Part shown: one piece after another, positions 13,308 to 33,733 of the stretch
Numbering within the stretch: the first letter of the stretch is position 1
How the letters are laid out: each line of letters begins with the position of its first letter
DNA from: an uncultured Phycisphaeraceae bacterium
GTDB lineage: Bacteria; Planctomycetota; Phycisphaerae; UBA1845
Length of the DNA stretch: 41,899 nucleotides
Direction: 5' to 3'
NCBI GenBank assembly: GCA_964552515.1
Contig: CAZKIN010000005.1
Span: forward strand, 1 to 41,899
The notes under the pieces: model-generated
The model's database searches: none
The model's input: only the letters and a program-made list of their open reading frames with translations
What the model was told of the DNA's origin: nothing
Position numbers and translations under genes: made by a program

Positions 13308-13322
13308 CGGACGGATCAGCCC

Positions 13323-13348
13323 AGGCACCAAGGCACAGAGCCACGGAG
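13323..13348 (+). repeat. GGCA/GCCA-core short tandem array (AGGCACCA AGGCACAG AGCCACGGAG)
   Basis: Ends 6 nt before the ATG at 13355. Confidence 0.7.
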
Positions 13349-13354
13349 AAACAC

Positions 13355-13573
13355 ATGACAGCGCCCGATCCATGCCTGTGCGGCTCCACGGACCTGCAAC
13401 ACTGGAACGAGGGGCATCGGCATCGGATCAACTGTGCCGGATGCGAGGCCCACGGAAGAATCAAGCCGAATCACGAAGCCGCAGTTGCGGAATGGAATGC
13501 ACAGATGGCCAGCGCCCGGAAGCGATACGCCGAGAACGAGAAGGCGCGGAGGAAGGGTCACGGACCCGAGTAG
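13355..13573 (+). CDS. Lar-family-like restriction alleviation protein (72 aa)
   Basis: CLCG...CAGC zinc knuckles followed by AAVAEWNAQ match the Lar family pattern (CxxC...CxxC...A-x-x-WN) from memory. Confidence 0.55.
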   Translation: MTAPDPCLCGSTDLQHWNEGHRHRINCAGCEAHGRIKPNHEAAVAEWNAQMASARKRYAENEKARRKGHGPE

Positions 13574-13599
13574 TGGCACGCGGACATCTTGCCAACGAG

Positions 13600-13672
13600 T
13601 GCGGAGTGGCGCAGCGGCAAGCGCGACTGGCTCATAACCAGAAGGTCGCAGGTTCGAGTCCTGCCTCCGCTA
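13600..13672 (+). tRNA. tRNA with anticodon CAU (Met, fMet-like or Ile2); no encoded CCA
   Basis: Cloverleaf folded by hand: acceptor pairs 2-71 to 7-66, D stem GCGC/GCGC, anticodon loop CTCATAA (CAT at 13633-13635), T arm GCAGG-TTCGAGT-CCTGC. U1/U72 and A27/A43 are mismatched. Confidence 0.85.
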
Positions 13673-13703
13673 TTGAAACCCTAACGACGCCGACAGGTGC
13701 ACC

Positions 13704-13736
13704 AGTGCGGGCGGCCAAGGATGGCTCGCCCGCACT
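13704..13736 (+). promoter_or_regulatory. Perfect 10-bp stem-loop downstream of the tRNA
   Basis: AGTGCGGGCG-N13-CGCCCGCACT. No T-tract. Confidence 0.45.
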
Positions 13737-13827
13737 CCGGAATTCAATCGTGTCACTGTGTGGCACGCAGTCATACGATGGAGCGGAAATTGGAATGCGG
13801 AGCGTAAGTGACAAAGGAGTGTCAGTT

Positions 13828-14229
13828 ATGAAAAACGGCTGGAAAACAAGGATGTTTCGTGTGTGCCACGCAGTGGCACTGTTCTTGGTGTCGGGATGCC
13901 TGGCGGGTTGCAGTGACCGCAATCAGACACAAGACGTGCTGTCGGCACTCGAACGCGGGCAGGCCGCCGGCGAGCTGGTGCTGACCAGCAACGGACGGGT
14001 CGGAGTCGGGCAGGCGACGAGCTTCTGGCTCGGCGCGGAACAAGCCTCGGTGAGCTTCTCGGGGCGGGTGAATTACTCCGGGGAAGGCACGGAGGCACAG
14101 AGGCACGGAGGCACGGAGGGTGCGGTTCCGCCAGCGGCCCCGGCGACGGGCGTGCGTCTGCCAGGCGAAGCGGTGAAACCCACTCCGACGCAGGTGCCCA
14201 GCGGGATTTCCACGACGGTGGTTCCGTAG
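13828..14229 (+). CDS. Lipoprotein (133 aa)
   Basis: AAAGGAG precedes the ATG at 13828. Signal peptide with lipobox LAGC (MFRVCHAVALFLVSGCLAGCSD). Pro/Thr-rich C terminus. Confidence 0.7.
   Translation: MKNGWKTRMFRVCHAVALFLVSGCLAGCSDRNQTQDVLSALERGQAAGELVLTSNGRVGVGQATSFWLGAEQASVSFSGRVNYSGEGTEAQRHGGTEGAVPPAAPATGVRLPGEAVKPTPTQVPSGISTTVVP
14083..14119 (+). repeat. Octamer tandem array GGCACGGA/GGCACAGA x4 inside the lipoprotein CDS
   Basis: Translated as EGTEAQRHGGTEG. The unit length of 8 is not a multiple of 3. Confidence 0.8.
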
Positions 14230-14240
14230 CCCGGATTCAC

Positions 14241-14265
14241 CACAGAGTCGCAGAGAACGCGGGAG
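14241..14265 (+). repeat. Related purine-rich short repeat (CACAGAG TCGCAGAG AACGCGGGAG)
   Basis: Intergenic; ends 7 nt before the ATG at 14273. Confidence 0.4.
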
Positions 14266-14272
14266 AAAAACG

Positions 14273-14551
14273 ATGTCGGCGGTGTTCAAGAATCTCCGTG
14301 TGAAACGCTTCGACGGGCCATTCGACTGGCAGCGATTCTGGGCGGCGGTCGGAGTGATCGAAACGATCGGGATCGTCGTCCTGTGCGTGTGGGTTCTGGC
14401 GGGCTGCATTCGGCCTACGTTCGCACTGGTGAATATCGAGGCTTCGAAGCCGCAACGAACGGCGGTCGAAGTGCCAGAAAACAGCCAGCAAGCCGCGCCT
14501 GACGGCGATGCTTTGGAGAATGACCCGCGATGGAACCAGTTGAAAAAATAG
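14273..14551 (+). CDS. Single-pass membrane protein (92 aa), lysis-cassette candidate
   Basis: TM segment AAVGVIETIGIVVLCVWVLAG with a hydrophilic C terminus. Confidence 0.5.
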   Translation: MSAVFKNLRVKRFDGPFDWQRFWAAVGVIETIGIVVLCVWVLAGCIRPTFALVNIEASKPQRTAVEVPENSQQAAPDGDALENDPRWNQLKK

Positions 14552-14760
14552 GGTTCTGGCTGCGGTGCCTGCGGGTGCTGAAAAGCACCGCGGTGCGCAA
14601 CGCGCTTGGCACCGTTTTGGCCGCGTTCGGCGTCGAGTTCGGCATCGGAATCGATGACACGACCGCGACGCTGTTGATCAGTGTCACCGTCTCCGCCCTG
14701 CTCAATAAGTTCATCGACAAGAAAATTCAGCCGGCGGCGGACCTGACGAAGGCCACGTAA
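14530..14760 (+). CDS. Holin-like small membrane protein (76 aa)
   Basis: Two hydrophobic segments (GTVLAAFGVEFGIGI and ATLLISVTVSALL) and a charged C terminus. Layout resembles r1t-type holins from memory. Confidence 0.4.
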   Translation: MEPVEKIGFWLRCLRVLKSTAVRNALGTVLAAFGVEFGIGIDDTTATLLISVTVSALLNKFIDKKIQPAADLTKAT

Positions 14761-14765
14761 GCACC

Positions 14766-14781
14766 GCCCGCACAAGCGGGC
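14766..14781 (+). repeat. Member of the CCCGC-loop-GCGGG stem-loop family (GCCCGC-ACAA-GCGGGC)
   Basis: Intergenic between 14760 and 14798. Confidence 0.6.
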
Positions 14782-14797
14782 TTGATGGAGGACACGG

Positions 14798-15226
14798 ATG
14801 TCCAAGAAAACAAAAACGAAAGCGAAGCCAGAGAGCGCGGAGTGCTCGGAAAAAGTCCTGGCGATTCGGGCCAAGGCACTTATCGCCACGCTGCAACTGG
14901 CCGAGTCGGAAGCAGCCCTGGGCGAACGCCCGGCAAAGCCGGTCACCGCCCGCGAACTCGCCGAACCCATCGGCGCGCACGGCAAGGACGCGGAAGTGCT
15001 CCGCCGCCGCGTGCGCGAGGCGGCGGCCTATGCCCGCGAAGTCCTGGGCGAAATGGTCTGTGCGAACGGTGATGGCTACTGGCTCGCCCGCGAGGCGGCG
15101 GAATACACGATGTACGAAGAGCACCGCCGGGCGAACACGCGGTTCGCTTTTGTCGCCGCGAAGAAACGCCGCCGCGCGGTAAGCGAAAAGAACACCGGCC
15201 AGAAACTGTTCGGAGCCAAACGGTAA
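14798..15226 (+). CDS. Hypothetical protein (142 aa), basic termini; possible DNA-binding regulator
   Basis: Lys-rich N terminus and KKRRR near the C terminus. No motif recognised. Confidence 0.5.
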   Translation: MSKKTKTKAKPESAECSEKVLAIRAKALIATLQLAESEAALGERPAKPVTARELAEPIGAHGKDAEVLRRRVREAAAYAREVLGEMVCANGDGYWLAREAAEYTMYEEHRRANTRFAFVAAKKRRRAVSEKNTGQKLFGAKR

Positions 15227-15228
15227 AC

Positions 15229-15558
15229 ATGGCCAACTCCGCCACGAAATCGTCGGGCACCCCACAAAGCATCGCAGCGGTCAACCGCCTGCAAGATGCA
15301 CGCAGCGCCATCGGCAAGATGCTCGCGGCCGCGGAGTCACGCGTGTCGCCCGAACAGCGTGTGACCGGAAGCGTGGCGGGCGACAGCGAAGGACTCGTCC
15401 GCGAGATCGCCACGGCAGTCACGCGGCACTGTCCGGGACTCACCGTGCAGATCGGTGACACGCACCTGGGTAACAACGAACGCAAGGCCGTGACGGCCTG
15501 GTGGTGTGACCCGCACAGCGGGTGTGTTGGGCAACAGGCACCGGAGAAAACAGCGTGA
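15229..15558 (+). CDS. Hypothetical protein (109 aa)
   Basis: Starts 3 nt after the previous stop. Its 3' end runs through a family stem-loop and a short repeat. Confidence 0.45.
   Translation: MANSATKSSGTPQSIAAVNRLQDARSAIGKMLAAAESRVSPEQRVTGSVAGDSEGLVREIATAVTRHCPGLTVQIGDTHLGNNERKAVTAWWCDPHSGCVGQQAPEKTA
15510..15522 (+). repeat. CCCGCACAGCGGG stem-loop followed by GGCAACAGGCACCGGAG (15530-15546)
   Basis: Same module as at intergenic sites, here within the last 16 codons of 15229..15558 and just before the GTG at 15555. Confidence 0.6.
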
Positions 15559-15911
15559 CGTTTGAAGCAGTGTCACAACTGGTGACCGGCGTGGGTGTGC
15601 CACTGGCCCTGTTCATGCTCAACGGCCTCCGCACCCAGGCGAGCAAGAGAAACACGGAGATCGACGGGCGATTTGAGAAACTCGAAACACGCATCGGTGA
15701 AATGGAAAAATCCATCGAGAGCCGCGTGCGCGACGTGGAGGACCGGAAGGCGGACAAGCAGGCATGGATGCGCGAGACCATCAACGCGGGCGCGAAAATC
15801 GACCATGTCAGCCAGCAGATTTCCGAACTCAAAGGGCGGTTTGACAGCGAGTTCGGCGTGGCGGCAGCGGTGAATCGTCTCGCGGATTCGCTCCAGGAGA
15901 GAGCACGGTGA
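15555..15911 (+). CDS. Membrane-anchored coiled-coil protein (Mu gp25/DUF2730-like or i-spanin-like)
   Basis: GTGA overlap start. TM LVTGVGVPLALFML is followed by a long heptad-like helix. Confidence 0.45.
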   Translation: MTFEAVSQLVTGVGVPLALFMLNGLRTQASKRNTEIDGRFEKLETRIGEMEKSIESRVRDVEDRKADKQAWMRETINAGAKIDHVSQQISELKGRFDSEFGVAAAVNRLADSLQERAR

Positions 15912-16219
15912 ATCAGTACAACGAAGTCAAAGCGGCGATCATCAAGAACGCGCGACGCAAGATCATGCACGCGTTCAACATCGCGCACATTCAGGGCGAA
16001 AACTCCACCGCACTATCCGGCCAAATGCTCTGCGGACTCTTCCCGGAAATGGACGGGGACTATCTGCGCAGCGACGTGTTCTACTTCGTCAAAAAGGGCT
16101 TCCTGGTACGGGTCAACATCCGCCCGAACCAGTCGTTCTTTCACATGGAATTTGAGCTGACCGGGCTGGGCAAAGAGCAGGCCGACGAAATAAACCGCGA
16201 TCCGGCATTGGACCCGTAA
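15908..16219 (+). CDS. Hypothetical protein (103 aa)
   Basis: GTGA overlap start. Directly upstream of the small terminase candidate. Confidence 0.5.
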   Translation: MNQYNEVKAAIIKNARRKIMHAFNIAHIQGENSTALSGQMLCGLFPEMDGDYLRSDVFYFVKKGFLVRVNIRPNQSFFHMEFELTGLGKEQADEINRDPALDP

Positions 16220-16714
16220 ATGAGCGAAGCAGCGGACAAACTGCAGATCGAACAGACACCGGACCCGGTGCCGCGCTGGGCGCGGGACCTGGAAGCGGAA
16301 GTCTTCCTGCGCTGCAGGGACCTCATCCTGGAAGGCTGGAAGGTGCCCGACGTGATGACCCATCTGGGCATCCCGAATGAGAAACGGGCCAGCGTTTACA
16401 ACATGGCCCAGGGCTTGCAGCGGCAGCGGCGCTTCAAGCTGTACGGAGAAGTGAAGGATGGCGTGCTGAAAGGCGCGTCGGAACTGACGCCGAAGCTGAT
16501 CGAGCTGCTCAAAAAACTCGCGGACATGGCGCTGTCCGACCAGGTCAGCGAAGGGACGCAGGAACGCAGCAGCAAGCTCATGCTCGAATTCGTGCGGATG
16601 ATGATGGACACGCACAAGGGTGAAACGGACGGCGGCGGCGAAGAAAAACCGCGCATCTCCACGGAAGAAGTGGTGGAACGAATCAGCGAGATTCTGAAAG
16701 TGAAGTTGGCCTAA
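16220..16714 (+). CDS. Terminase small subunit candidate (Mu gp27-like position)
   Basis: Position immediately upstream of the large terminase. N-terminal HTH-like WKVPDVMTHLGIPNEKRASVYN. Confidence 0.5.
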   Translation: MSEAADKLQIEQTPDPVPRWARDLEAEVFLRCRDLILEGWKVPDVMTHLGIPNEKRASVYNMAQGLQRQRRFKLYGEVKDGVLKGASELTPKLIELLKKLADMALSDQVSEGTQERSSKLMLEFVRMMMDTHKGETDGGGEEKPRISTEEVVERISEILKVKLA

Positions 16715-16769
16715 AAGAAGGCACGCAGGCACAGAGGCACGAAGGCACGAAGAAGAAGGCGTAAGGCGT
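16715..16769 (+). repeat. GGCA-core tandem array filling the whole 55-nt small/large terminase spacer
   Basis: AAGAAGGCACGCAGGCACAGAGGCACGAAGGCACGAAGAAGAAGGCGTAAGGCGT, then the ATG at 16770. The strand has only 3 T residues. Confidence 0.85.
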
Positions 16770-18164
16770 ATGGCGAAAGGCAAGAACAGTCCGGTGATCG
16801 AAGTGCGGGAGCCGCAGTTTCCCACGCTCGACAATGCGCCGAATCTCGGCGGGCTGCTCTACACCCATCAGCGCCGGGCGATTGAAAGCCCACACCGATT
16901 CGGCGTGTTCAACTGGTCACGCCAGAGCGGCAAGAGTAAGGGGCTCACCCTGCGGCGCATCCTGCGCGGTATGAAACGGCGGACCAACCAGATCCTGCTG
17001 TCCAAAGGCGCACGGCAGAGCCGGGAACTGATGGACAAGGTTCGCGAGTGGCTGTCGGTGATGGATGTGCTGGCGGAGTTCGGCCAATTCGAGGACGTGT
17101 TCGAAGAGCGCAAGGAACTGGTCATGTACGTCAAACTGCCCCGGCTGGGCATGACCATCTACGCGCTGCCCGCGAATCCGGACACCGCACGCGGGTACAC
17201 CGGCGATCTGCTGCTCGACGAATTCGCGATGCACAAGGAAGGCAAGAAAATCTGGTCGGCGGCGATGCCGAGCATTGCGGCCTGCGACGGCGAGATCGAC
17301 GTGTGCAGCACGCCCAAGGGCCAGCAGAACATGTTCTACCGGCTGTGGACCAACCCCGATTACTACACCGACAAGGTCACGATCTATGACGCAGTGGCGG
17401 GCGGGTTCAAGGGTGATCCGGAAGTGCTGCGCAAAGGCGCGGTGGATGAAGACACCTGGCGGCAGGAATTCCTCTGCGAGTTCGTGGACGAAGCGACGGC
17501 GTTCCTCACCTGGGAAGAAATCCTCGCGTGCGAGGATGACGCGCTGCCGTACGAGCTTGACGTCGCGCGACTGGCCGAGTGCAAGGGCGATGTCTACATC
17601 GGGATCGACGTCGGGCGCACCACGGACCCCAGCGTGATCTGGGCATTCGAGCGTGACAGTTCGATGCTGATCAGCAAAGGCATCATTTCTCTGACCAACA
17701 TCCCATTCAAACAGCAGAACGCGATTCTCGAATCGGTGATGAATTGCCGCTGCGTGCGCCGCGCGGCGATCGACGCTTCCCCGCTTGGGAAGAAGTGGTG
17801 CGAGGACCTGCAGGAACGATATGGAGCGCACAAGGTTGAGGCGTGCACCTTCAGTGCGAGCAACAAAGAACAACTGGCCGGTGCATTTCGCGTGAAGGTG
17901 CTGGACAAAAACGTACGCATTCCGGCTCACGAGCGACTGCGCTGCGACCTGCACAGCGTCGAAAAGAGCGTCACGGCGGTAGGCAATGTGCGGCTGTCGG
18001 CCAGTCGCGATTACGGGATGCACGCGGATCAATTCTGGGCCGGTGCCCTGGCGGTGCACGCGGCGGGTGATCCAGTCGGACCGATCGAAGCGCGGTTCGC
18101 CATGCCGTTTGCGGAGCGGAAGACTTCGCAATTGGGCGGCTACGGGAGTCGGAAGGGATGGTAA
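16770..18164 (+). CDS. Terminase large subunit
   Basis: Walker A-like SRQSGKSKG and Walker B LLLDEFAMH. C-terminal nuclease-like region. 464 aa. Confidence 0.85.
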   Translation: MAKGKNSPVIEVREPQFPTLDNAPNLGGLLYTHQRRAIESPHRFGVFNWSRQSGKSKGLTLRRILRGMKRRTNQILLSKGARQSRELMDKVREWLSVMDVLAEFGQFEDVFEERKELVMYVKLPRLGMTIYALPANPDTARGYTGDLLLDEFAMHKEGKKIWSAAMPSIAACDGEIDVCSTPKGQQNMFYRLWTNPDYYTDKVTIYDAVAGGFKGDPEVLRKGAVDEDTWRQEFLCEFVDEATAFLTWEEILACEDDALPYELDVARLAECKGDVYIGIDVGRTTDPSVIWAFERDSSMLISKGIISLTNIPFKQQNAILESVMNCRCVRRAAIDASPLGKKWCEDLQERYGAHKVEACTFSASNKEQLAGAFRVKVLDKNVRIPAHERLRCDLHSVEKSVTAVGNVRLSASRDYGMHADQFWAGALAVHAAGDPVGPIEARFAMPFAERKTSQLGGYGSRKGW

Positions 18165-19237
18165 CTATGAAAGCCACCAAGGGAATGCTGGCGTGCGCGG
18201 TACCGGGCATCGCGGCCATGATGGCCATGGGGCCGGCTGCCTTCGCGAAGGCACAGGCGCAAGCAGTCGAAGAGCAAAGGGTCACGGACCCAAAGCTTCG
18301 CGCACCGTTCACCTACTTCGGCGGCAAGAGCCGCGTCGCGGATGAAATCTGGCGGCGCTTTGATGCCAGCGAAGTGCGGCTGTTCATCGAGCCGTTCTTC
18401 GGCAGTGGTGCCACTACTCTGGCAAGACCTGGTGGGGCGCACGGAACCGAAATCGCCAATGACATGGACGGCTACGTGCTGAACTTCTGGCGGTCGGTGC
18501 AGCAATATCCGGAAGTCGTCGCGCGGTACTGCAACGGGCTGGTGCACGAACTCGAACTGGAAGCGCGGCACAAATGGCTGGTCGAGCATCGCCGCAAGGC
18601 CCGGCTCGCCACCAAGCTGCGCAGCGATACGGCATGGTGCCATCCGAAACTCGCGGGCTGGTGGCTATGGGGACACAACGCCTGGATCGGCGGCGGCTTC
18701 TGTGCGGGTGAATATTTCGGCGCCGGCGATCCACGCAACAAGGGCTCGGGCGTTGAACCCAAGAACCCCGAGCACGGCGGCAAACGACCCACTGCGAAAC
18801 CCTATGGCATCATGTGCCGGCCTCCAGCTGAACGGCTCGCCTGGGTCAAAGCCTTGGCCACGCGGCTCGATCGCGTGCGGTTCCTATGTGGCGACTGGAC
18901 ACGCCCGATCACCACGGCAGTCAAGTCCAAGTGCGTCACGGCGATCCTTTTCGATCCGCCCTACTCGGCGGAAGCGGGACGCGCGAAGGAAATCTACAAC
19001 TGCGAAGACCTGGCGGTAGCGCACCGCGTGCGCAAGTGGTGCATCGAACACGATCGATTGAAACATCTCCGCATGGCGCTGTGCGGCTATGACGGCGAGC
19101 ACAACGAACTCGAACAACGTGGTTGGAAGAAATTTGCCTGGCGAGCCTCGGGCGGGTTCGGGGTCATCGCCAAAGGTCCAGGGTACACGAACCGCGAAAA
19201 AGAACGCATCTGGTTTAGTCCCTATTGCAAGGCTTAA
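18158..19237 (+). CDS. Dam-like (D12-class) N6-adenine DNA methyltransferase with ~45-aa N-terminal extension
   Basis: PFTYFGGKSR, EPFFGSGA (motif I) and LFDPPY (motif IV). Alternative starts at 18167 or further downstream. Overlaps the terminase stop. Confidence 0.85.
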   Translation: MVTMKATKGMLACAVPGIAAMMAMGPAAFAKAQAQAVEEQRVTDPKLRAPFTYFGGKSRVADEIWRRFDASEVRLFIEPFFGSGATTLARPGGAHGTEIANDMDGYVLNFWRSVQQYPEVVARYCNGLVHELELEARHKWLVEHRRKARLATKLRSDTAWCHPKLAGWWLWGHNAWIGGGFCAGEYFGAGDPRNKGSGVEPKNPEHGGKRPTAKPYGIMCRPPAERLAWVKALATRLDRVRFLCGDWTRPITTAVKSKCVTAILFDPPYSAEAGRAKEIYNCEDLAVAHRVRKWCIEHDRLKHLRMALCGYDGEHNELEQRGWKKFAWRASGGFGVIAKGPGYTNREKERIWFSPYCKA

Positions 19238-19239
19238 TC

Positions 19240-20637
19240 ATGGCGGAAAAAGGATTCATCGCATGGGGGGTTTCGGCACTGAAGTCAGTGTTCGCACCCG
19301 CGCCTGCGCCAGCGCCCGCGCCGCAGGGACAACTGGTCATCCCCAGCGCGCGGCTGGATGGATTCCGCCAGACCGTCGCCGATGCCCTGGACCTGCGGAG
19401 GCTGTCGGCCCTGCTGCGCAGCGCTGACTCGGGGCGACTCTCCGACGGCCTGCTGCTGTTCGAAGAAATGGAGCAGAAGGACGCCAACCTGCGCAGCGTG
19501 GCGGACACGCGCCGCCTGGCACTCACCGGACTGGACTGGGAAGTGGTCAGCGCGGCGGATGAACAGGCGGAAGGTATCGACCGCACCCTGGCGGATGAAG
19601 CGGCCGTGCGCGTGCGCGAAGTGCTGGGCAATCTCGCCAGCTTCGACGAGGCGCTGGAGCACCTCTCCACCGGAATCGGCCCCAATCTGGCCGTGCTGGA
19701 ACTGGTCTGGGATGCCATGAATCTGGCCCGCCTGGTTCCGGTACCATCGTGGCGACTGGTGAGTGACGGCTCTCAACCCGGCGTGGTGCGCGTGATTACC
19801 GATCAGAACCTGGACGGCATCCCAGCCACCAGCCCGAAGTTCGTGGTGCATCATCCGCACGGCGGCGGGGGTCACGGACCCAGCGGGTTCTTCCCGTTCA
19901 CCAAGGCGCTGACGAGGCCGCAGGCATTCCTGCACCTGGTCAAGCAATTCGCGACGATCGACTGGGGAACGTTCTGCACGATCTTCGGCATGCCCATCCG
20001 CGTGGCGACGTATGACGCCAGCGCGACACCGGAAGAAAAAGACACCGTCCTGGACATGCTGCAAAACCTCGGCACCAACGCGTGCGCCATGTTCAGCAAG
20101 GCGGTCACGCTGGAGATGAAGGAATCATCCCAGCGCGGCACCGCACCCTATGAAACCATCATCGCCTACTGCGGGCGCGAACAGGCGAAGCTGTTCCTGG
20201 GCGGCAACCTGACCAGCGACACCACCGGCGGGACGGGAACACTCGCGGCGGGCGCGGTGCAGAACGAAGTCCGCCAGGACCTCCGCGACGATGACATCCG
20301 CCGCGAATCGCGGACCGTGGAACGGCAGATCATCGCACCGCTCTGCAAGACACTCTTCCCTGGACAAACCGTGCCCTGTCCGAAGTTCCGCCGCGTGAAA
20401 CCGGAGACCATCGACCGCGTGCGCGAAGCCGAGCTGCTGCTCAAGGCGCAGCAACTGGGCGCGAAAATACCGCTTAAGCATGCACTCGCCCAACTGGGCA
20501 TCCCGGAACTGCAGGATGGGGAAATCGCACTGGAACCGGGACTGGATGCGTTCGGGGCGGGATTGGGAAACGAGATGATGCCCAACCGCGAAGCCACACC
20601 GGGTGATTCTCTCATTCACGCAGGAGAGGAAAAATAA
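19240..20637 (+). CDS. Portal protein, Mu gp29-like (DUF935-like)
   Basis: LRSADSGRLSDGLLLFEEMEQKDANLRSVADTRRLALTGLDWEVV resembles the gp29 family. The ATG at 19240 is 3 nt after the MTase stop. Confidence 0.8.
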   Translation: MAEKGFIAWGVSALKSVFAPAPAPAPAPQGQLVIPSARLDGFRQTVADALDLRRLSALLRSADSGRLSDGLLLFEEMEQKDANLRSVADTRRLALTGLDWEVVSAADEQAEGIDRTLADEAAVRVREVLGNLASFDEALEHLSTGIGPNLAVLELVWDAMNLARLVPVPSWRLVSDGSQPGVVRVITDQNLDGIPATSPKFVVHHPHGGGGHGPSGFFPFTKALTRPQAFLHLVKQFATIDWGTFCTIFGMPIRVATYDASATPEEKDTVLDMLQNLGTNACAMFSKAVTLEMKESSQRGTAPYETIIAYCGREQAKLFLGGNLTSDTTGGTGTLAAGAVQNEVRQDLRDDDIRRESRTVERQIIAPLCKTLFPGQTVPCPKFRRVKPETIDRVREAELLLKAQQLGAKIPLKHALAQLGIPELQDGEIALEPGLDAFGAGLGNEMMPNREATPGDSLIHAGEEK

Positions 20638-20942
20638 TGCCCCTGCGGAATCTGGATCAGGTGCAAGCTGGCGTTCACATGCTCGCGGGACGGACATTGA
20701 AACGCACCGCCAAGGATTATGGCGAGCGGACGATCGGACCACTGGTGGAAGTGCTCAAGCGGGCCAATGGATTCGAGGACTTGCAATCGCAAATGTCGCA
20801 GTCGCTTTTTACACGCATGGATCACCAGGTGGTGGCGGGCGCGATTGCCCGGACTGGTGTGCAGGCAGCACTGATTGGACGAACGGCGGCGATACCGGTG
20901 AAGAAGGCAACAGGCAACAGGCAGCAGGCAACAGGAAAATGA
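20637..20942 (+). CDS. Hypothetical head-module protein (101 aa); same frame as the Mu F-like gene, separated by one TGA
   Basis: TAATG overlap with the portal stop. The C terminus (ATGNRQQATGK) is encoded by a heptamer array. Confidence 0.5.
   Translation: MPLRNLDQVQAGVHMLAGRTLKRTAKDYGERTIGPLVEVLKRANGFEDLQSQMSQSLFTRMDHQVVAGAIARTGVQAALIGRTAAIPVKKATGNRQQATGK
20906..20935 (+). repeat. Heptamer tandem array GGCAACA x4 (one GGCAGCA)
   Basis: Same unit as at 2066-2093. Ends 4 nt before the TGA at 20940. Confidence 0.85.
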
Positions 20943-20945
20943 ACC

Positions 20946-22852: not shown

Positions 22853-22865
22853 CGCGAACCCCGGA

Positions 22866-22878
22866 CCCGCAGAGCGGG
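22866..22878 (+). repeat. CCCGCAGAGCGGG stem-loop; shorter CCGCACAGCGG copy at 22885-22895
   Basis: Located in the 85-nt spacer between the scaffold and decoration genes. Confidence 0.6.
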
Positions 22879-23312: not shown

Positions 23313-23319
23313 CCCGCAT

Positions 23320-23348
23320 AGCGGGATGGTCCCGCTGCGCGTTTTTTT
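23320..23348 (+). terminator. Intrinsic terminator/attenuator between the decoration and capsid genes
   Basis: 7-bp stem AGCGGGA/TCCCGCT with a 3-nt loop, then GCGCG and TTTTTTT (23342-23348). Overlaps the family stem-loop CCCGCATAGCGGG (23313-23325). Confidence 0.55.
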
Positions 23349-24389: not shown

Positions 24390-24432
24390 TCCTGGTGCAT
24401 GTGGGTGCCGTGAGGCAACGGAGTTAACGAAG

Positions 24433-24867: not shown

Positions 24868-24905
24868 AAGAAGGCACGCAGGCACGAAGGGACGAAGGCA
24901 CGGAG
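24868..24905 (+). repeat. GGCA-core tandem array (AAGAAGGCACGCAGGCACGAAGGGACGAAGGCACGGAG)
   Basis: Starts right after the TAG at 24865. Followed by stem-loop CCCGCACAGCGGG (24906-24918) and the ATG at 24931. Confidence 0.85.
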
Positions 24906-24930
24906 CCCGCACAGCGGGTTTGAGAAGATC

Positions 24931-25608: not shown

Positions 25609-25611
25609 CAC

Positions 25612-26088: not shown

Positions 26089-26098
26089 GGAATGAATT

Positions 26099-26995
26099 AT
26101 GGCGAACAGTAGAGTTTATAACGCACAGGCACTGAAGGTGGTGACCCCGAACATCACCATCGGCGGCATGGCCAGCGCGGGCATCAGCCCCAGCTATCGC
26201 GATGTCATCCAGAGCCGGGGCGACGGCGCGGCGGGCGTGGAAGACGTGGACCGCGCAGGCCTGCGCATCGGAACCAGCTTTGAAGCGAGCGACGTGACCA
26301 AGGTCAATGCGATCCTGGACGCGGCGGAAAGCGACGTGTCATTCTCGGGCAAGGAAAGCGCATCCACCAACTGGCACCATGCCCTGATCAAGCGCAACAC
26401 CTTCACGGGCATGAACCTGAACTTCCCGTTCAACGCGGACGCGAGCATGTCGCTTACCGGCGTGCTCCGGGCGGCGCTGGTCACCGACGGCATGGCGCAG
26501 CATGTGGTCATCACCACCAACACGACAGCGCCCACGGTGGTCTATCCGACGCGGCTCTATCGACCTTACGGCGTGGCCTTCGGTTTGAGCTCCCCATTGG
26601 CCCCGGTGCACATGCAGAGCGTGCAACTGGCGCTGACGGCGGAAGTGCTCGAAGACTACGGCGACCGCGACCTGGCGATCATGGCGGTGGACCGGCTCTT
26701 CTGGAATCCGCTGCAGGTGACGCTGGCCTTCCGCGATTTCTCCAAGAGCAGCGGCGTGGACATGGCGTCGCGGATGCTGGATCGCGGACGCGAGCAGCTC
26801 ACGCTGGGACTGTCGGGCCGGGCGGGCGCGGCGGACAAAACGCTGACCATTGAGAACCTGCTGTTCACCGGAGAGCCCAACATCACCAAGGGCCGCGACT
26901 ATTGGGAGTTCAGCCTCACCGGCCTGGCAGCGTGGAAGAGCGGCGCGACGGTGTACACGATGAACGCGAGCAACAAGCTCTTCTCGTTTGCCTGA
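26099..26995 (+). CDS. Putative major tail (tube) protein
   Basis: First large gene after the head-tail joining genes, 298 aa. No motif recognised. Confidence 0.35.
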   Translation: MANSRVYNAQALKVVTPNITIGGMASAGISPSYRDVIQSRGDGAAGVEDVDRAGLRIGTSFEASDVTKVNAILDAAESDVSFSGKESASTNWHHALIKRNTFTGMNLNFPFNADASMSLTGVLRAALVTDGMAQHVVITTNTTAPTVVYPTRLYRPYGVAFGLSSPLAPVHMQSVQLALTAEVLEDYGDRDLAIMAVDRLFWNPLQVTLAFRDFSKSSGVDMASRMLDRGREQLTLGLSGRAGAADKTLTIENLLFTGEPNITKGRDYWEFSLTGLAAWKSGATVYTMNASNKLFSFA

Positions 26996-27017
26996 TGACT
27001 AACCCCAAGGAACGTCC

Positions 27018-28286: not shown

Positions 28287-28298
28287 GACTGAAAATGA

Positions 28299-28784
28299 AT
28301 GGCCAACGGCAATCCAAAATACGGCGGAACGAACAGCGTGCCACTGCTCGACGTGGGGCAGATCGGCGGCGCACGCAACGCGGCGGGCGATGCGACGTTC
28401 ACCGTGCGCGGAGCAGTTGCGCCCGAACGAGCGGTGGTGGTCGAGCATCGCGCAGCGCAGCAGGGCGGACTTATCCAGGACAACCTCGGCTATGCCGGCG
28501 GGGCGATGCGCTGGAGCGGCACGCTCAAGGTGGCGGACCTGGACACGCTATGGGAAATCGCCGCCGAACTGAATCAGAAGGTCCACGGCCAACTGCGCAG
28601 CAGCAGCGGCACGCTGGGACCGGTCGATGCCACGCAGCTCCGCGAAACGCAGCTGACGGATTACGACGGACGCGTGCTGGCGGACCGGGCACGAATCATC
28701 GGCTGGCAATTCACCGGTGACCGGCACACGACACCGGAAGGAAAGATCGTGGTGGGTTTGGATATTGAGTTCAGGATTCTTTGA
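28299..28784 (+). CDS. Tail structural protein (161 aa)
   Basis: Position between the tape-measure-like and hub-like genes. Confidence 0.4.
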   Translation: MANGNPKYGGTNSVPLLDVGQIGGARNAAGDATFTVRGAVAPERAVVVEHRAAQQGGLIQDNLGYAGGAMRWSGTLKVADLDTLWEIAAELNQKVHGQLRSSSGTLGPVDATQLRETQLTDYDGRVLADRARIIGWQFTGDRHTTPEGKIVVGLDIEFRIL

Positions 28785-28823
28785 AGAAGGCACGTAGGCA
28801 CGAAGCCACGTAGGGAAGGAAAG
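28785..28823 (+). repeat. GGCA/GCCA-core array filling the whole 39-nt spacer
   Basis: AGAAGGCACGTAGGCACGAAGCCACGTAGGGAAGGAAAG, then the ATG at 28824. Confidence 0.8.
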
Positions 28824-31295
28824 ATGCCGCCGCCGACGAGAGAAACGCCAGGAAGGGAGCCAACGCCGCAGCCGCGAAGCGTGCTGACCGGTCCGCCCAC
28901 GAGTTACGCGGGGCGGCGGGCGGACGTGCGCGTGCAGGTGGAGGCCACGCCGAACAGCGGCAACTTCGTGACGCCACCGGACGTGGTGGACTGGTCGATC
29001 GTCACCGAGGGCTTGAACGACAACGAACACACCGCCACGCTGACCATCGCGGGATTGGATGCCAACCGGCTGTCACGGAGCAACCCCAGCGGCAATGACC
29101 TATTGGGCGATCAACACTTCACGCATCTGATGTCGATGCTGTCGCCCAATAAACGCATCCGCATCGGCGCGGGCTTTACGGACAGCGACCCGCTGATTCT
29201 GTTCCAGGGCTGGCCGCTGACGCGCAGCGTGCGCTGGAATGAAGGCACGCAGGCGATGACGGTGACCTGCATCAGCGAAGGCGACGAAGCGCTGGCCACC
29301 TGGCCGTTAAGTCAGATCCTCGGACAAGTGCGGCGCGGCAAACCGCACCTGCCATGGAACCCGATGGAGCCGCAGCTCCACACGGTGGACGCAAGCCCGG
29401 CGATTTTCAATCCGGGCGGACGGCCGAACCGCAGCCCGAATCCAGTGAAGGTGTCAGTCGAAGGACACGACCACCTGGTCTACCTGTTCTGCGATACGGA
29501 AGCGCCGCAAAAGGAAAGCGCCGACACGGTCGATCCGCCGGGCTTCGTCGGACCGCCGACTCCGCCGGGCGCACTGGTGACCAAGAACCCCGTGCACTGG
29601 ACGGTGGTCAATGCGCTGCGCTACCTGTGCGCCACGAACAGCAATTCGATTGTCTCGGTCAGCGACTTCATGCAGGACACGGACGCACTGATTGACCAGG
29701 CGGCACAAGCCGTCGGCGAGCCGTTCGTCACCGCCCTGACCGCGCGGCTCAATGATGCGAACTGCAATGCGATGAGCCTCCGCGAAGCGCTGCTCGTGGT
29801 GTGCCAGAGCGTGGGCCTCAACTTCCAGACACAGATTCGACGCGGCAAGGCGACGACGGGGACACCCATCGCGGGTTCGTCACGCTTCGCACTGCGCGTG
29901 TTCATGGCGCTGCAAGACGGACAGGACGAACAAGCGACGCCGGGCAACCGGCGGATGATCATGCCGAAGGTGCGCGACCTGCCCCGCCAGGCACCGTTCA
30001 GCGACAACACCGGCATGGAAGCGAAGGACTTCGCCATCGCCAACAAGGCGGGCTTTGAGTGCGATGTCACGCTGGACGCGCGGGCGATCAATCGACCGAC
30101 GGTGGTGGGCGGCATCCGCACCTATGAGGTAAGCCTGTGGCTGCGGCCAGGATGGGCCATACTTGACCAGCTCGACAATCTGGCGACGGGGACCAGCCAG
30201 GCGGACAAGAACGCACGCAAGACCGCGATGCAGTGGTGGCAGGGGCAACTGCAAACCAACGAGTTCGACCGGGGAACTACGCTGCCGACCAGCCTGCTGC
30301 ATGGGCAATTCGCCGACCACTTCGCGAACAGCGACGCGGCACGCCAGTGGATCTTCCCGGACACCATGGAATACAGCGAAGGCTTTGACCGCGAGGGCTG
30401 GCACCTCAACCTCTATCAGCCGTTCATGCCGCCGACCGTACCCGGTGAAGTCAGCGACGGGCAGAGCGTTTACCAGCATTCGATTCTCGGTGGATCGATC
30501 CTCGACGCATCCACCTGGATGCCGCGCCGGAGGCCGTTTCGAGACACCATCGGACGGCATTCGAAGGACGGTCGAAGGTCGCCCGTGGTCCGCATCTGCT
30601 TTGACTTTGCCTGGGTGAATCCGGCGATGCCGGAACTGGGCGCGACGGGCACCTGGCGCGACTTCACCGGCGATGTCACGATCGATACGGAGCGCGCGGC
30701 TTTGCGCTTCAACGCGGCCAACCCGTGGACCGATCCGACGCTACGACTCTTTCCCGATCTGGAACTGGTGGACATCGACAGCAGCGACCCGGAAGCGGCG
30801 GGCGCGAACATCAACATGATCGAAGCGATCATCATGGGCCGCTTCGCGGTGGAAGTGACCTGCTGCATCGAAGGCGACAGCCGCATTACGGCGATCGGTT
30901 TTCCCGGAAGCGGAGAACGGGCCCGCGCGGCGATCGTCGAGGCGGCGGACCGCTTTCAGCACCTGCGGCGGCGCGGACAAAACAGCCTGCTGAATAACCA
31001 GCCCACCGACGAACTGACCTTCGAAGATCGCGAGGATGATCTCGCCCTGGCGGACTATGCCGCGAAGCTGCGCCGCAGGTCGGGCAAAGAAACGGCGGCG
31101 GCCAGCGTCACGGTTCCCTGGTGCGACGCCGACGGCGGATGGGAAGTGGGCGACGCGATCACCGGATGCAGCGGCATCGACATCCCGTTCAGCGGGTACA
31201 GCGAGATCGTGAGCAAGAGCTATCAGAACAACGGCGGCAGCGTGCAGACGACGTACAACATTGGCGATCTCCGGCATTCTCCGGAGCTCGCCTAG
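28824..31295 (+). CDS. Large tail tip/hub-like protein (823 aa)
   Basis: IRIGAGFTDSDPLILFQGWPL resembles the N-terminal motif of gpD/gp27-type hub proteins (weak, from memory). Confidence 0.45.
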   Translation: MPPPTRETPGREPTPQPRSVLTGPPTSYAGRRADVRVQVEATPNSGNFVTPPDVVDWSIVTEGLNDNEHTATLTIAGLDANRLSRSNPSGNDLLGDQHFTHLMSMLSPNKRIRIGAGFTDSDPLILFQGWPLTRSVRWNEGTQAMTVTCISEGDEALATWPLSQILGQVRRGKPHLPWNPMEPQLHTVDASPAIFNPGGRPNRSPNPVKVSVEGHDHLVYLFCDTEAPQKESADTVDPPGFVGPPTPPGALVTKNPVHWTVVNALRYLCATNSNSIVSVSDFMQDTDALIDQAAQAVGEPFVTALTARLNDANCNAMSLREALLVVCQSVGLNFQTQIRRGKATTGTPIAGSSRFALRVFMALQDGQDEQATPGNRRMIMPKVRDLPRQAPFSDNTGMEAKDFAIANKAGFECDVTLDARAINRPTVVGGIRTYEVSLWLRPGWAILDQLDNLATGTSQADKNARKTAMQWWQGQLQTNEFDRGTTLPTSLLHGQFADHFANSDAARQWIFPDTMEYSEGFDREGWHLNLYQPFMPPTVPGEVSDGQSVYQHSILGGSILDASTWMPRRRPFRDTIGRHSKDGRRSPVVRICFDFAWVNPAMPELGATGTWRDFTGDVTIDTERAALRFNAANPWTDPTLRLFPDLELVDIDSSDPEAAGANINMIEAIIMGRFAVEVTCCIEGDSRITAIGFPGSGERARAAIVEAADRFQHLRRRGQNSLLNNQPTDELTFEDREDDLALADYAAKLRRRSGKETAAASVTVPWCDADGGWEVGDAITGCSGIDIPFSGYSEIVSKSYQNNGGSVQTTYNIGDLRHSPELA

Positions 31296-31320
31296 CCACG
31301 AAGCCACGAAGCCACGAAGG
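31295..31320 (+). repeat. Perfect octamer array GCCACGAA x3
   Basis: Begins at the last base of the TAG stop. The ATG at 31336 follows. Confidence 0.85.
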
Positions 31321-31335
31321 GGCGGATGAAGACGG

Positions 31336-31821
31336 ATGGCGAAGACAACAGTAAGCCTCGACGTCGAGTGCGACCCAGACTGGGTCGCAGAGACGCGCCT
31401 GAACGCGTACAGCGACTTTGGTTGCGGAGTGGTCGATTACACGCGTCCGCTGCTGGGACGCGGCCTGCGGGCCTTCCCGGAGGCCTCCGCAGTGGCCGGG
31501 CTGGGCGATGGTCTGCTCGGCGAAGTGATCCTCGGCGGCACGCGGCCGCGAGCCGCTCGGGAAGCAGGACTCGGCGCCGGGCTGCTCGGTGAACTGGTCC
31601 TGGGCACCGGGCCGGAACTGGTGAGCATCAGCGTCGAAGTGCCGCCGGCGTTTGCGATGCACAAGTTTGCGGTCATCGCGTACGACGACGCGGGCGTGGA
31701 GCAAGGCGCACCACTGGTCAGTGACGTGTTCGTGTCGTCGACTGATCCGGAAACGCCCAGGGCGTTTGCCCTGGAGAGTTATGACGCGACGCTCGATCGA
31801 TTGACGTTTCTGGTTGCCTAG
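31336..31821 (+). CDS. Tail-associated hypothetical protein (161 aa)
   Basis: ATG 31336. The alternative ORF 31326..31592 is Arg-rich and shadow-like. Confidence 0.45.
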   Translation: MAKTTVSLDVECDPDWVAETRLNAYSDFGCGVVDYTRPLLGRGLRAFPEASAVAGLGDGLLGEVILGGTRPRAAREAGLGAGLLGELVLGTGPELVSISVEVPPAFAMHKFAVIAYDDAGVEQGAPLVSDVFVSSTDPETPRAFALESYDATLDRLTFLVA

Positions 31822-31823
31822 GG

Positions 31824-32048
31824 ATGGCACCACAGAGGAATGCGATGAACCGGCCACAGCACGGAAAATGGAAGTCGCGTCGGGTCAGGCACGAGTGGAA
31901 TCGGGCAAATGCGTTTTGGCGCAGGGCCAATTATGAGGGCGCTTCACCGGAAGAAATCAAAGCCTACCGCGAGGCAATCGCGCGATACTTTCTGGCCAAG
32001 CGGATCATCGTGAGCCTTCGTGCTCTTCGTGATCTTCGTGGTGAGTAG
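31824..32048 (+). CDS. Small basic protein (74 aa); 3' end encoded by an inverted repeat array
   Basis: The tail SLRALRDLRGE is encoded by CTTCGTG units. Coding status is uncertain. Confidence 0.3.
   Translation: MAPQRNAMNRPQHGKWKSRRVRHEWNRANAFWRRANYEGASPEEIKAYREAIARYFLAKRIIVSLRALRDLRGE
32015..32041. repeat. Inverted-orientation array (CCTTCGTG CTCTTCGTG ATCTTCGTGG, complement of CACGAAG units)
   Basis: Anchored to the TAG at 32046-32048. Opposite strand polarity to the other late-region arrays. Confidence 0.75.
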
Positions 32049-32065
32049 CAAGGAGACTTAAAGTT

Positions 32066-33643
32066 ATGTCGAATCCAGCAGTCGTATCATTCAGCAACGC
32101 GGTGGCCGCGACGAAGAGCGGCGTGCGCCATGCCATCGGCCTCTTGCAGGCGGTGGTCGGCGACAGCAATACCGCCGATCCGAACTGGCTGAGTAAATAC
32201 ATCACGGTGATGGAACGCACGTGGGACCTGCTCGCCATGCTCAGCGGCGGAGCGGTGGTGCAGTTCGCATCGACCGGACTGACCGTCGATGTGTACGCGG
32301 CCAATTATCAGATCGGGGCCACGCGCTACACCTATGCCGGAGGAACCCTGCTGCTCACGGGCAGCGCCACCAACTACGTCTACCTGGACGCCGATCAAAC
32401 GCCCAAGACGCACACGACGGCATTCCCCGCGGATGTGTTCCGCCTGGCGATTGTGACCACCGATGGCAGCAGCGTCACCGCGAACAAGGACGCGCGGAGC
32501 GAAAACTTCCGCATCGGCAGTGACAGCTGGTGGAACCTGCCGGCCGAGGATGACGTGGACCTCGACGGCTACCACGCGATCAACGTCGGCGGCATCGCCT
32601 TCGACGCGCCGACCACCCTGGCCATTGCCAGCGGCGTGATCACGCCGACGCAGGAAGTGCACACCATCGATACCGAGGCGCTGTCCGCGAGCGATGATCT
32701 GGTGACCATCACGCCCTTCGCGGAATGGCCGCGCCGCCTGATCCTGCGCAGCGCGAACGGCAGCCGGTCGATCACCATCCTCGGATCGGGAAACATCGTG
32801 CTGGCGCAGGACGGACAGAGCGTGCTGCTCTCCAACCCGGCCTATCACATTGAGCTTTTGCAATACAGCGCCACGCATTTCGTGACCATCGCGAAGCCGA
32901 TCGTGGGAATCACGCAACTGGTCACCGATGTGAACGCGGCAAACAAGGGCTTCACAGCGATGAAGGGCATCGCGTACACCGTGAACTCAGAGTCGATCGC
33001 CAGCGGCGTCGTCGACGGCGTCGGCTACCAGCACATCATGGTGGACACGGAGGGCGGCGCGAGCAGCGACGATCTGACCACTATGCAGGACGTGGGTGTC
33101 GGAGAGTTGCGGATCATCACCATTGCCGATGCGGGGCGGGTGGTGACGGTCAAGCATGGCACCGGCTCGGAACAGTTCCGCATGGCCCACGGCCGCGACT
33201 TCGTGATGAACAGCCTGGCCCACACGCTGGTGGTGCGCATGGCGGACGACGGCGTATTGTGCGAAGTGGCGCGCAGCCACTGGACCAACGCGTACCACGA
33301 GGACATTCCCATCTACATCGCAGGCACGCCGTCGGCGGCGGCGTACGGACTCAAGATCACACTGGGCAGTGACGCGGTGATCCGTTACGCGTCCGGACAA
33401 GTGGGCACAGCTCCGAGCGGCACAGCATTCATCTGCGACGTGCGGGTCAATGGGTCGAGCATCTTCGCCAGCCAGGCGGAGATGATCAACATCGCGGCCG
33501 GCGCAACCAGTGACACCAGTGCGGTGAAGAACCATGTGTGCGTGGCCGGCGACGTGATCGACATCGAACCGGAAGTCATCAGCGGCGCGGCGAACTTCAC
33601 GGCGACGCTGCACCTGGCGAGAAGTCCGCAAGCAACGCCGTAG
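32066..33643 (+). CDS. Tail fibre-like protein (525 aa)
   Basis: AAGGAG lies upstream. Ser/Thr/Gly/Ala-rich, beta-type composition, located in the tail module. Confidence 0.45.
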   Translation: MSNPAVVSFSNAVAATKSGVRHAIGLLQAVVGDSNTADPNWLSKYITVMERTWDLLAMLSGGAVVQFASTGLTVDVYAANYQIGATRYTYAGGTLLLTGSATNYVYLDADQTPKTHTTAFPADVFRLAIVTTDGSSVTANKDARSENFRIGSDSWWNLPAEDDVDLDGYHAINVGGIAFDAPTTLAIASGVITPTQEVHTIDTEALSASDDLVTITPFAEWPRRLILRSANGSRSITILGSGNIVLAQDGQSVLLSNPAYHIELLQYSATHFVTIAKPIVGITQLVTDVNAANKGFTAMKGIAYTVNSESIASGVVDGVGYQHIMVDTEGGASSDDLTTMQDVGVGELRIITIADAGRVVTVKHGTGSEQFRMAHGRDFVMNSLAHTLVVRMADDGVLCEVARSHWTNAYHEDIPIYIAGTPSAAAYGLKITLGSDAVIRYASGQVGTAPSGTAFICDVRVNGSSIFASQAEMINIAAGATSDTSAVKNHVCVAGDVIDIEPEVISGAANFTATLHLARSPQATP

Positions 33644-33733
33644 AGGAAGGCGAAAGGGCACAAGGCGTAAGGCGTAAGGGGAAAGGCACGGAAGGCACGA
33701 AGGCACGAAGAAGAAGGCAAGGAGGCCACTGAA
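33644..33733 (+). repeat. Longest composite array (90 nt): GGCGTAA x2, GGCACGRA x3, AAG runs
   Basis: Fills the entire spacer between the TAG at 33641 and the GTG at 33734. Confidence 0.85.

Follow-up and report, generated by a model that had tools for sequence, protein, structure and literature searches.

The 41.9-kb contig CAZKIN010000005.1, analysed here over its entire length (the window) and assembled from an uncultured Phycisphaeraceae bacterium, is punctuated by short tandem arrays of mostly 7- and 8-nt units that lie chiefly between genes. On balance, we favor the interpretation that they are lineage-typical long simple-sequence repeats (LSSRs) and not a device specific to the phage that the contig encodes. 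Pfam matches identify a Mu-type transposase gene (7287-9566) and a MuB-like ATPase gene (6134-7303) on the minus strand, and on the plus strand genes for a large terminase (16770-18164), a D12 methyltransferase, a Mu portal (19240-20637), a Mu F-like protein, and a Mu protease I-like protein; the early genes run leftward from ~10.6 kb and the late genes rightward from ~13.2 kb. The window is a transposable phage of the Mu-like kind, of Planctomycetota/Phycisphaerae type. Those portal homologs that have a name are labelled Planctomycetota or Phycisphaerae, and it is from these labelled homologs alone that we infer the host.

All 12 loci listed in an earlier note on this sequence are present on direct reading, and Tandem Repeats Finder (TRF) calls nine of them (2065-2094, 14085-14119, 16717-16781, 20905-20935, 24870-24902, 28788-28814, 31294-31319, 32003-32040, and 33647-33726); those at 14241-14265 (degenerate) and 15530-15546 (two units) are weak. 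Our own scan of the window found 17 arrays of period 6-9 where Markov-2 simulations predict 1.1, and across the window and the related phages L009 and L213, phase-locked runs of at least two units number 27 for octamers and 14 for heptamers against an expectation of ~0.2, a ~100-fold excess. The purine-rich strand is nearly T-free, as had been noted, with 2.1% T in the arrays compared with 15.5% in the late region. A gene boundary lies no more than 40 nt from 10 of the 11 late-region arrays (0 of 20,000 permutations as high; p<5e-5), and in 8 of the 11 non-coding sequence makes up at least 50% of the array, compared with 5.4% of the region as a whole (again 0 of 20,000 permutations as high).

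The arrays are 26-90 nt long, with some inside genes, some 3′ of stop codons ahead of hairpins, and some antisense, and we rejected on these grounds the idea that they are Shine-Dalgarno (SD) sites only, each of which would be one motif of 4-8 nt, complementary to the anti-SD and 5-10 nt 5′ of the start. Separate SD motifs (GGAG, AAGGAG, AAGGA) lie within or after the final unit, in keeping with the view put forward in the note that an SD alone would account for neither the length nor the regularity of the arrays. Most arrays are less stably folded than 80-100% of length-matched window segments, and to call them unstructured purine-rich leaders, as the note also proposed, is physically correct, but a function does not follow from it. 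We also rejected a clustered regularly interspaced short palindromic repeat (CRISPR) array, in which repeats of 25-40 nt alternate with unique spacers of about their own size, as the 7-8-nt units run head to tail without spacers, and iterons, on period and layout. Among Rfam covariance models run against the window, only a tRNA at 13600-13672 reaches the gathering score, and no family corresponds to the arrays.

LSSRs are prokaryotic repeats with units of 5-11 nt (Mrazek et al. 2007, as summarized in PMC4679880 and PMC4692102); in these summaries heptamers are dominant, the phylogenetic distribution is sporadic, the repeats are enriched in non-coding DNA where the unit is not a multiple of 3, copy number is variable, and polymerase slippage is the proposed origin. 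The window arrays resemble the class so summarized in these traits and in being tandem direct repeats of 7 and 8 nt (with one of 9), longer and more numerous than composition predicts, over-represented in non-coding DNA, and polymorphic in copy number and sequence between close relatives. They differ in that octamers are almost as frequent as heptamers, and in that their carriers, Planctomycetota-type bacteria and Mu-like phages, are not among the LSSR-rich genomes named in PMC4679880 and PMC4692102. Because these published descriptions fit almost point by point, we file the window arrays as new members of that class. The statement that no function has been described for such arrays holds insofar as none is established, but the class itself has been described, including its TAACTGA and GGGNATC families (PMC4679880, PMC4692102). 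Among the four options originally offered, a host-lineage simple-sequence element that occupies gene junctions fits best, as the same units are found beside chromosomal housekeeping genes and in unrelated viral contigs.

The TAACTGA repeats (MacGregor 2015, PMC4679880) occur in marine Beggiatoaceae, cyanobacteria, and Bacteroidetes, where many loci have 2-6 copies, usually pointing forward and a few nt 5′ of start codons, with some in open reading frames (ORFs) and no pattern among the functions encoded downstream. The window arrays are similar in forming heptamer arrays at many loci near start codons, some of them in ORFs, in showing no such pattern either, and in having a unit common to distant phyla. 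Orientation and position match too; TAACTGA repeats would, however, replace a canonical ribosome-binding site, and a canonical SD lies in or after the final unit of nearly every window array. The arrays differ further in that the window units (GGCACGAA, GCCACGAA, GGCAACA, and GGCGTAA) are unrelated in sequence to TAACTGA, several unit families share one genome, and no phage context is reported for TAACTGA. The short tandemly repeated repetitive (STRR) heptamers of cyanobacteria, reportedly described by Mazel et al. in 1990, are said to comprise few families per genome and to be tandem and dispersed in intergenic regions, and in all of these respects the window arrays are alike. To our knowledge neither octamers nor phage carriers have been described for STRRs, and their units (families STRR1-3) and phylum (heterocystous cyanobacteria) differ from those of the arrays described here.

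Occurrence in related phages and in chromosomes

Close relatives of the window phage were not found in a search of genome contigs and viral contigs with the single portal sequence, BLASTN of 7.9 kb of the window against GenBank phages gave no match, and exact look-ups of the portal with a TTG start and of P0004 returned nothing. A portal-profile (alignment-based) search gathered ~55 further related Mu-like phages; several of these share ancestry, and counts over them are not independent. One syntenic phage, L009, from a Phycisphaerae metagenome-assembled genome, has a portal 49% identical to that of the window and carries ~18 arrays in 21 kb, with units in common (GGCACGAA, GCCACGAA, and GGCAAYA). 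Many others in the portal-profile set have equally dense arrays built from quite different units, such as GGATGAA in L210, GCGAATA/GGCGAAT in L244, and GGGACGAA, GAATTAC, and CGATTGT in L217-L222; in some related phages, including all of the low-GC ones, arrays are absent.

To survey chromosomes we searched contigs of one genome per species with the pattern GGCACRRAGGCACRRAGGCAC, which spans 2.6 octamer units, the loci thus being chosen by the pattern itself. There are at least 120 genomic stretches with this pattern where ~4 are expected by chance, and among the matches listed they are mostly from Phycisphaerae/Planctomycetota, Opitutales and other lineages of the Planctomycetes-Verrucomicrobia-Chlamydiae (PVC) group, and Gemmatimonadales. 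Their neighbors are ordinary metabolic or housekeeping genes (ThiC, DapF, Rpe, and GDH, for example), and unrelated viral contigs likewise carry GGCAC-type arrays. A homolog of any window protein is present at only 1 of the 120 loci among the matches listed, and we therefore rejected the arrays as a hallmark of this phage family; they are not a prophage property, as the note had them, and are not phage-specific.

Nor does the GGCA/GCCA core define them. A permuted octamer without hidden periodicity occurs in 23 viral stretches, compared with 32 for the real GGCAC-type unit, and being about as common it shows that the core is not special; together with the equal density of other units in related phages, this led us to reject a special GGCAC core. 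A further control pattern, CGGACRRA, was unsuitable (CGGACGGA = (CGGA)n), and its matches, at least 120, were disregarded. A literature search with the repeat strings found no paper, and 7-8-nt units from these taxa fall outside the scope of a survey of prokaryotic satellites (PMC6749651).

Period, polarity and turnover of the arrays

Period and size are both tightly restricted. In 558 kb of related phages, arrays of period 7 nt (n=95) and 8 nt (n=56) predominate, with few of 6 (n=2), 9 (n=6), or 10 nt (n=2). Taking the window together with L009 and L213, heptamer runs have two, three, and four units in 1, 2, and 11 cases and are never longer, octamer runs have two, three, four, and five units in 11, 5, 10, and 1 cases, and at the genomic loci there are 49 four-unit runs but only 7 five-unit runs. 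The same preference is seen with G-poor units, GAATTAC having 1, 8, and 1 runs of three, four, and five units, and AAAGTTC having 2, 7, and 12 runs of two, three, and four units.

A four-unit ceiling is reported for the GGGNATC repeats only, as a preference related to G-quadruplex (G4) formation (PMC4692102). These repeats, GGGAATC and GGGGAYT in Xanthomonas and Nostoc (Rehm et al. 2015, PMC4692102), have GGG or GGGG tracts and form G4 in vitro, with no function found. The window arrays share with them a genome-wide distribution of G-rich heptamers, a non-coding bias, a position mostly between co-oriented ORFs, inverted pairs, housekeeping neighbors, the four-unit preference, and variation in copy number and sequence at the same junction between close relatives. 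The suggestion that the window arrays are themselves two-tetrad G4 formers, with four GG tracts acting on transcription or translation, draws on this shared preference and on GG doublets phased every 7-8 nt. We nonetheless consider it the least likely option and give it almost no credence: the units have GG at most, with 5-6-nt loops and no tract of three or more G, GCCACGAA units have no GG inside the unit, ViennaRNA run with G4 energies gives a predicted G4, a weak one, for only 1 of the 12 arrays, and the four-unit preference is equally strong in the G-poor GAATTAC and AAAGTTC arrays.

The arrays are also polar. With each phage locus oriented by its portal, the purine strand near plus-strand genes is on the plus strand in 88 arrays and on the minus strand in 10, and 75 of the 88 are at junctions. 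Near minus-strand genes it is likewise on the plus strand, in 13 arrays compared with 2 (corresponding to ~9 independent arrays in six phages), 11 of the 13 lying deep inside genes. With the arrays masked, GC skew of the plus strand is +0.080 inside minus-strand genes compared with +0.103. In the window and related Mu-like genomes the portal-sense strand is G-rich (GC skew about +0.08 to +0.10) even in oppositely transcribed genes, which points to a strong strand asymmetry tied to replication in these phages. Array strand also tracks local GC skew at the chromosomal loci (31:21 vs 19:42, p=0.003). Among intergenic chromosomal arrays (GGCAC-type runs of at least three units, no more than 300 nt from genes), 20 have their purine strand on the coding strand of the downstream gene and 6 do not; an earlier, looser count of all 7-8-nt arrays in chromosomal loci gave a random orientation relative to genes, and in-gene calls at these loci are unreliable, with stop-free arrays and a crude caller. 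We found no mention of a strand polarity independent of gene direction in the descriptions of the TAACTGA and GGGNATC repeats (PMC4679880, PMC4692102).

Such a polarity, set by the genome and not by the gene and agreeing with the G-rich strand in phages and chromosomes, would be expected if the arrays were polar DNA signals: either phased sites for a DNA-binding protein (of the ribbon-helix-helix type, as omega or ParG on 7-8-bp tandem units) or Chi/KOPS-like motifs read by a translocating enzyme such as a RecBCD/AddAB-type nuclease, an FtsK-like pump, or the terminase. The 7-8-bp period and the four-unit quantum are as expected of an oligomeric binder, and Chi and KOPS are G-rich, strand-biased octamers, which we take as a lead only. 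This explanation is nevertheless improbable. Several unrelated units are present per genome and differ between related phages, which a single recognition sequence could not accommodate; a 7-8-bp period does not keep step with the turns of the DNA helix; close relatives lose or replace arrays; the analysis turned up no candidate binding protein; and convergent inverted pairs are common in chromosomes. In these pairs, which are intergenic and occur in chromosomes and phages alike, a purine-rich array is followed by its reverse complement 30-300 nt further on (L037, 1060-1190; L039, 2570-2910; L044, 2200-2380; L058, 1840-2000; L063, 3030-3240; L217, 17432-17499 and 19060-19123), and they could fold into long hairpins.

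Turnover between relatives is extensive. At the junction between a small portal-adjacent ORF and the Mu F-like gene, the window has four copies of GGCAACA, L003 (88% identical) has a single GCCACGA unit (GAAGCCACGAGG) between conserved flanks, and L009 has (GGCAACG)x4. Orthologous junctions were also compared in L217, L219, L220, L222, and L215. One junction among these ~90%-identical phages is occupied by GAATTAC x3, x4, or x4.6 or by either of two kinds of GC-rich hairpins; a second has GGGACGAA, a mixture of GGCACGAA and GGGACGAA, or GAATTAC; and a third is filled by an array in two phages but empty in another. Arrays within the L009 terminase and MuA genes align with linker gaps, 7 and 5 residues long respectively, in the window proteins and are thus insertions. 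The array at 16715-16769 is identical in L001 and L002, which are independent assemblies of one phage, and turnover is therefore not fast enough to blur a single population. The note had reckoned that variability in related elements and a lack of bias toward gene boundaries would count against a role for the arrays; they are indeed highly variable, but the bias still holds.

Differences in copy number between relatives could also point to contingency (phase-variation) loci, in which the gain or loss of units switches genes by frameshift or spacing, and a one-unit change in the array within the lipoprotein gene (14083) or the helix-turn-helix (HTH) gene (2066) would shift the frame. We find this very unlikely, as most arrays occupy stop-to-start spacers, in which the number of units alters neither frame nor promoter spacing, the L001 and L002 arrays are identical, and the chromosomal neighbors are housekeeping genes and not surface or antigen genes. 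Rehm et al. reached the same conclusion for GGGNATC-type repeats (PMC4692102). 

A possible but unlikely alternative is that the arrays are functional RNA elements, namely ~30-nt structure-free purine-rich leader tracts on which a ribosome can stand by or land, or which present phased sites to an RNA-binding protein (S1, a cold-shock protein, or a CsrA-like protein), boosting or coordinating downstream translation. In the standby model of de Smit and van Duin, poorly structured single-stranded RNA near an SD is said to let the 30S subunit wait, and the window arrays are likewise U-poor, weakly folded, and beside an SD; standby sites are defined by function and not by repeats, however, and an effect of the arrays on translation is putative. 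The junction position of plus-oriented arrays in plus-strand gene regions, their ending in or just 5′ of an SD in the window, their low predicted structure, and the sense orientation of chromosomal intergenic arrays all agree with a role of this kind, as does the preferred length of 28-32 nt, which is close to the 30S footprint. Orthologous junctions in the window and L009 both have arrays, with differing units, and the same role was proposed by MacGregor for the TAACTGA repeats (PMC4679880). Yet many junctions in the same phage are array-free, with genes that overlap or are separated by a short spacer containing just an SD, and the same junction in close relatives can lack an array or have hairpins instead. 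Arrays also lie in 3′ untranslated regions before terminator hairpins (24868; L039), in genes, and antisense in minus-strand genes, and the AAAGTTC/GAACTTT family forms inverted pairs, which would be structured RNA. As units are wholly different between related phages, a single sequence-specific binder is unlikely.

Individual arrays and neighboring features

The leftmost array, (GGCAACA)x4 at 2066-2093, has its purine strand on the plus strand but lies inside the minus-strand HTH gene (989-2299), where it is read antisense as AVACCPLPVA in the linker immediately before the HTH domain. The remaining arrays are in the late region, and in all but one the plus strand is the purine-rich one. At 13323-13348, direct reading shows three degenerate 8-nt units (AGGCACCA, AGGCACAG, AGCCACGG, then AG) ending in a GGAG SD 6 nt 5′ of the ATG of a small zinc-finger gene (13355-13573). 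About 4.4 units of GGCACGGA/GGCACAGA (TRF and direct reading) occupy 14083-14119 within a lipoprotein gene (13828-14229), read as EGTEAQRHGGTEG in its low-complexity C-terminal part; the array is ~110 nt before the stop codon and not at the 3′ end of an ORF, as had been proposed. A degenerate, purine-rich 8-nt periodicity (CACAGAGT, CGCAGAGA, ACGCGGGAG) is discernible by direct reading at 14241-14265 on the plus strand, in the spacer before the ATG at 14273; it is weak, with no call by TRF, and is possibly a decayed array. Similarly, direct reading at 15530-15546 gives two units only, GGCAACA and GGCACCGGAG, just 3′ of a hairpin (15510-15522) and ending in a GGAG SD ahead of a GTG start.

Three spacers are filled exactly, as the note described, and these arrays, like the others that follow, were seen both by TRF and by direct reading. 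The first (16715-16769) has four 8-nt GGCAC-type units (GGCACGCA, GGCACAGA, and two of GGCACGAA), GAAGAA, and two GGCGTAA-type units, and makes up the entire 55-nt spacer from a small-terminase-like gene to the large terminase ATG. The second (28785-28823) has units GGCACGTA, GGCACGAA, and GCCACGTA plus GGGAAGGAAAG and takes up the full 39-nt spacer 5′ of the gene for an 823-aa protein. The third (33644-33733) is a composite of GGCGAAA/GGCGTAA, GGCACGAA, GAAGAA, and GGCAAGGAGG that constitutes the whole 90-nt spacer 5′ of the gene for an 845-aa protein, with a strong AAGGAGG SD 9 nt before the GTG. 

(GGCAACA)x4.3 at 20906-20935 closes the small ORF 20637-20942 at its 3′ end, translated as ATGNRQQATGK, directly before the Mu F-like gene, and ~4 units of GGCACGMA at 24868-24905 directly follow the stop of a gp36-like gene and are succeeded by the hairpin CCCGCACAGCGGG with TTT (24906-24921) and then the next start codon. 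Three perfect copies of GCCACGAA at 31295-31320, also found in our own scan, begin on the final base of the upstream stop codon and end in GAAGG ahead of a start at 31336. The exception in orientation is at 32015-32041, with its purine strand on the minus strand and the only window array with reversed polarity; it had been listed with the 7-8-bp arrays, but its period is 9 nt, with three units having a CACGAAG core on the strand opposite to the gene, and when read on the plus strand it encodes, in frame, an amino-acid repeat (about LRxLRxLR) at the 3′ terminus of ORF 31824-32048.

The hairpin at 15510-15522 belongs to a family, CCCGC-N3-5-GCGGG, often followed by T's, with further copies at 14767-14780, 22866-22878, 23313-23325, 24906-24918, and 5452-5464; five copies are at plus-strand gene junctions and two of them adjoin arrays. 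These are probably terminator or RNA-stability elements of the repetitive extragenic palindromic (REP)-like kind. An analogous family, CCCGGCAAGCCGGG, is present in L009, hairpins stand in place of arrays at orthologous junctions in L219 and L220, and in L039 the final array units are the 5′ arm of a terminator-like hairpin. A promoter and terminator scan of the window gave no promoter-like sites and terminator-like sites at background level.

Several other features of the phage were recorded. The 13355-13573 gene (plus strand), directly 3′ of the 13323 array, codes for a 72-aa protein with two CxxC pairs and only a weak zinc-finger match in Pfam, presumably resembling the Lar-type restriction-alleviation proteins. 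Between it and the lipoprotein gene is a plus-strand tRNA-Met (CAT) gene at 13600-13672, in which, by eye, the end of the acceptor stem is paired and just two G-C pairs lie beside the anticodon loop; this suggests an elongator or Ile2-type tRNA and not an initiator. The lipoprotein gene itself (13828-14229, plus strand) had gone uncalled, and has an AAGGAG SD, a signal peptide (MKNGWKTRMFRVCHAVALFLVSGCLAGC), and a lipobox (LVSGC/LAGC). It had been hidden by the 341-aa ORF 13204-14229, which is spurious because it crosses the tRNA gene; lacking stop codons, arrays help to create such over-long ORF calls, a point that matters for annotation generally.

Between the large terminase and portal genes is an inserted gene for a D12-class N6-adenine DNA methyltransferase (18158-19237, plus strand), with no gene there in L009. 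A 60/120-nt tandem repeat at 38951-39361 (plus strand; 6.8 or 2.2 copies, 62-73% matches) lies within the gene for a 558-aa late protein (ORF 38232-39908) and is probably a protein-level repeat of a tail-fiber-like gene, unrelated to the 7-8-nt arrays. In L009, a small gene 5′ of the terminase genes (7808-8038) matches the Acb2/Tad1 hairpin domain PF24729 (precomputed Pfam), and its product may be an anti-CBASS/Thoeris sponge.

Proposed origin and probable effect of the arrays

Under the LSSR interpretation, slipped-strand or template-switch events during DNA replication would create and resize the arrays. The Mu-like genome would be copied by a single fork from end to end, and we propose that such a process is therefore strand-polar, placing the purine-rich strand on the G-rich strand throughout. 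Selection would then filter which arrays survive, with retention in the intercistronic spacers of same-strand genes, where the RNA of an array, being stop-free, nearly U-free, and poorly structured, would leave the following SD unmasked, and also in protein linkers, where arrays would be read through. At the junctions of opposite-strand genes, where arrays are almost absent, their transcripts would be rich in pyrimidines and complementary to SDs. Any effect on expression is probably generic, the array acting as a spacer that uncouples neighboring cistrons and keeps the ribosome-binding region open, with no specific signal.

Several observations weigh against this interpretation. Simple slippage does not explain the sharp preference for 7-8-nt periods, why array size tops out near four units, why a few unit families turn up at many sites of one genome, or the junctions that have filler. 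Some junctions keep filler of some kind in every relative, and in the region syntenic between the window and L009, all four window arrays are at junctions that also have L009 arrays (hypergeometric p ~0.04), including the 24868 junction, with an array plus hairpin in L009 too, and the 28785 junction, with GGCAAYA arrays; the spacer could thus be needed. In-gene arrays are ~5 times denser in minus-strand than in plus-strand genes, which the model does not predict, and the polarity in minus-strand genes draws on the few independent arrays noted above. Gene calls in the fetched loci come from a crude caller using third-position GC content (GC3) and ORFs, which reproduces the window gene map well but over-extends ORFs through arrays. 

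The period, the four-unit ceiling, the recurring units, and the retained fillers keep a functional reading alive, whether as a standby pad or a protein-binding array. A bolder proposal, which we advance tentatively and hold to be unlikely, is that a dedicated strand-polar mechanism writes 7-8-nt units in blocks of about four (~30 nt), yielding modular and interchangeable intercistronic elements in these bacteria and phages, perhaps ribosome standby pads or arrays that bind an oligomeric protein, whose unit co-evolves with each host or phage lineage. If this were true, the four-unit quantum in G-poor units would overturn the G4 explanation of the same quantum in Xanthomonas and Nostoc. Any mechanism is constrained by the strict 7-8-nt periods, the ceiling of about four units whatever the G content, and a polarity that follows the G-rich strand of the genome and not gene direction.

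Dispersed heptamer repeats have been known for decades in a few bacterial groups, their origin and function unexplained. The arrays described here extend the phenomenon, with octamers added, to Planctomycetota-type bacteria and their Mu-like phages, at densities of up to about one array per kb. Because these phages are small, fast-evolving, and experimentally tractable, they may provide a model for how such repeats arise and what they do.

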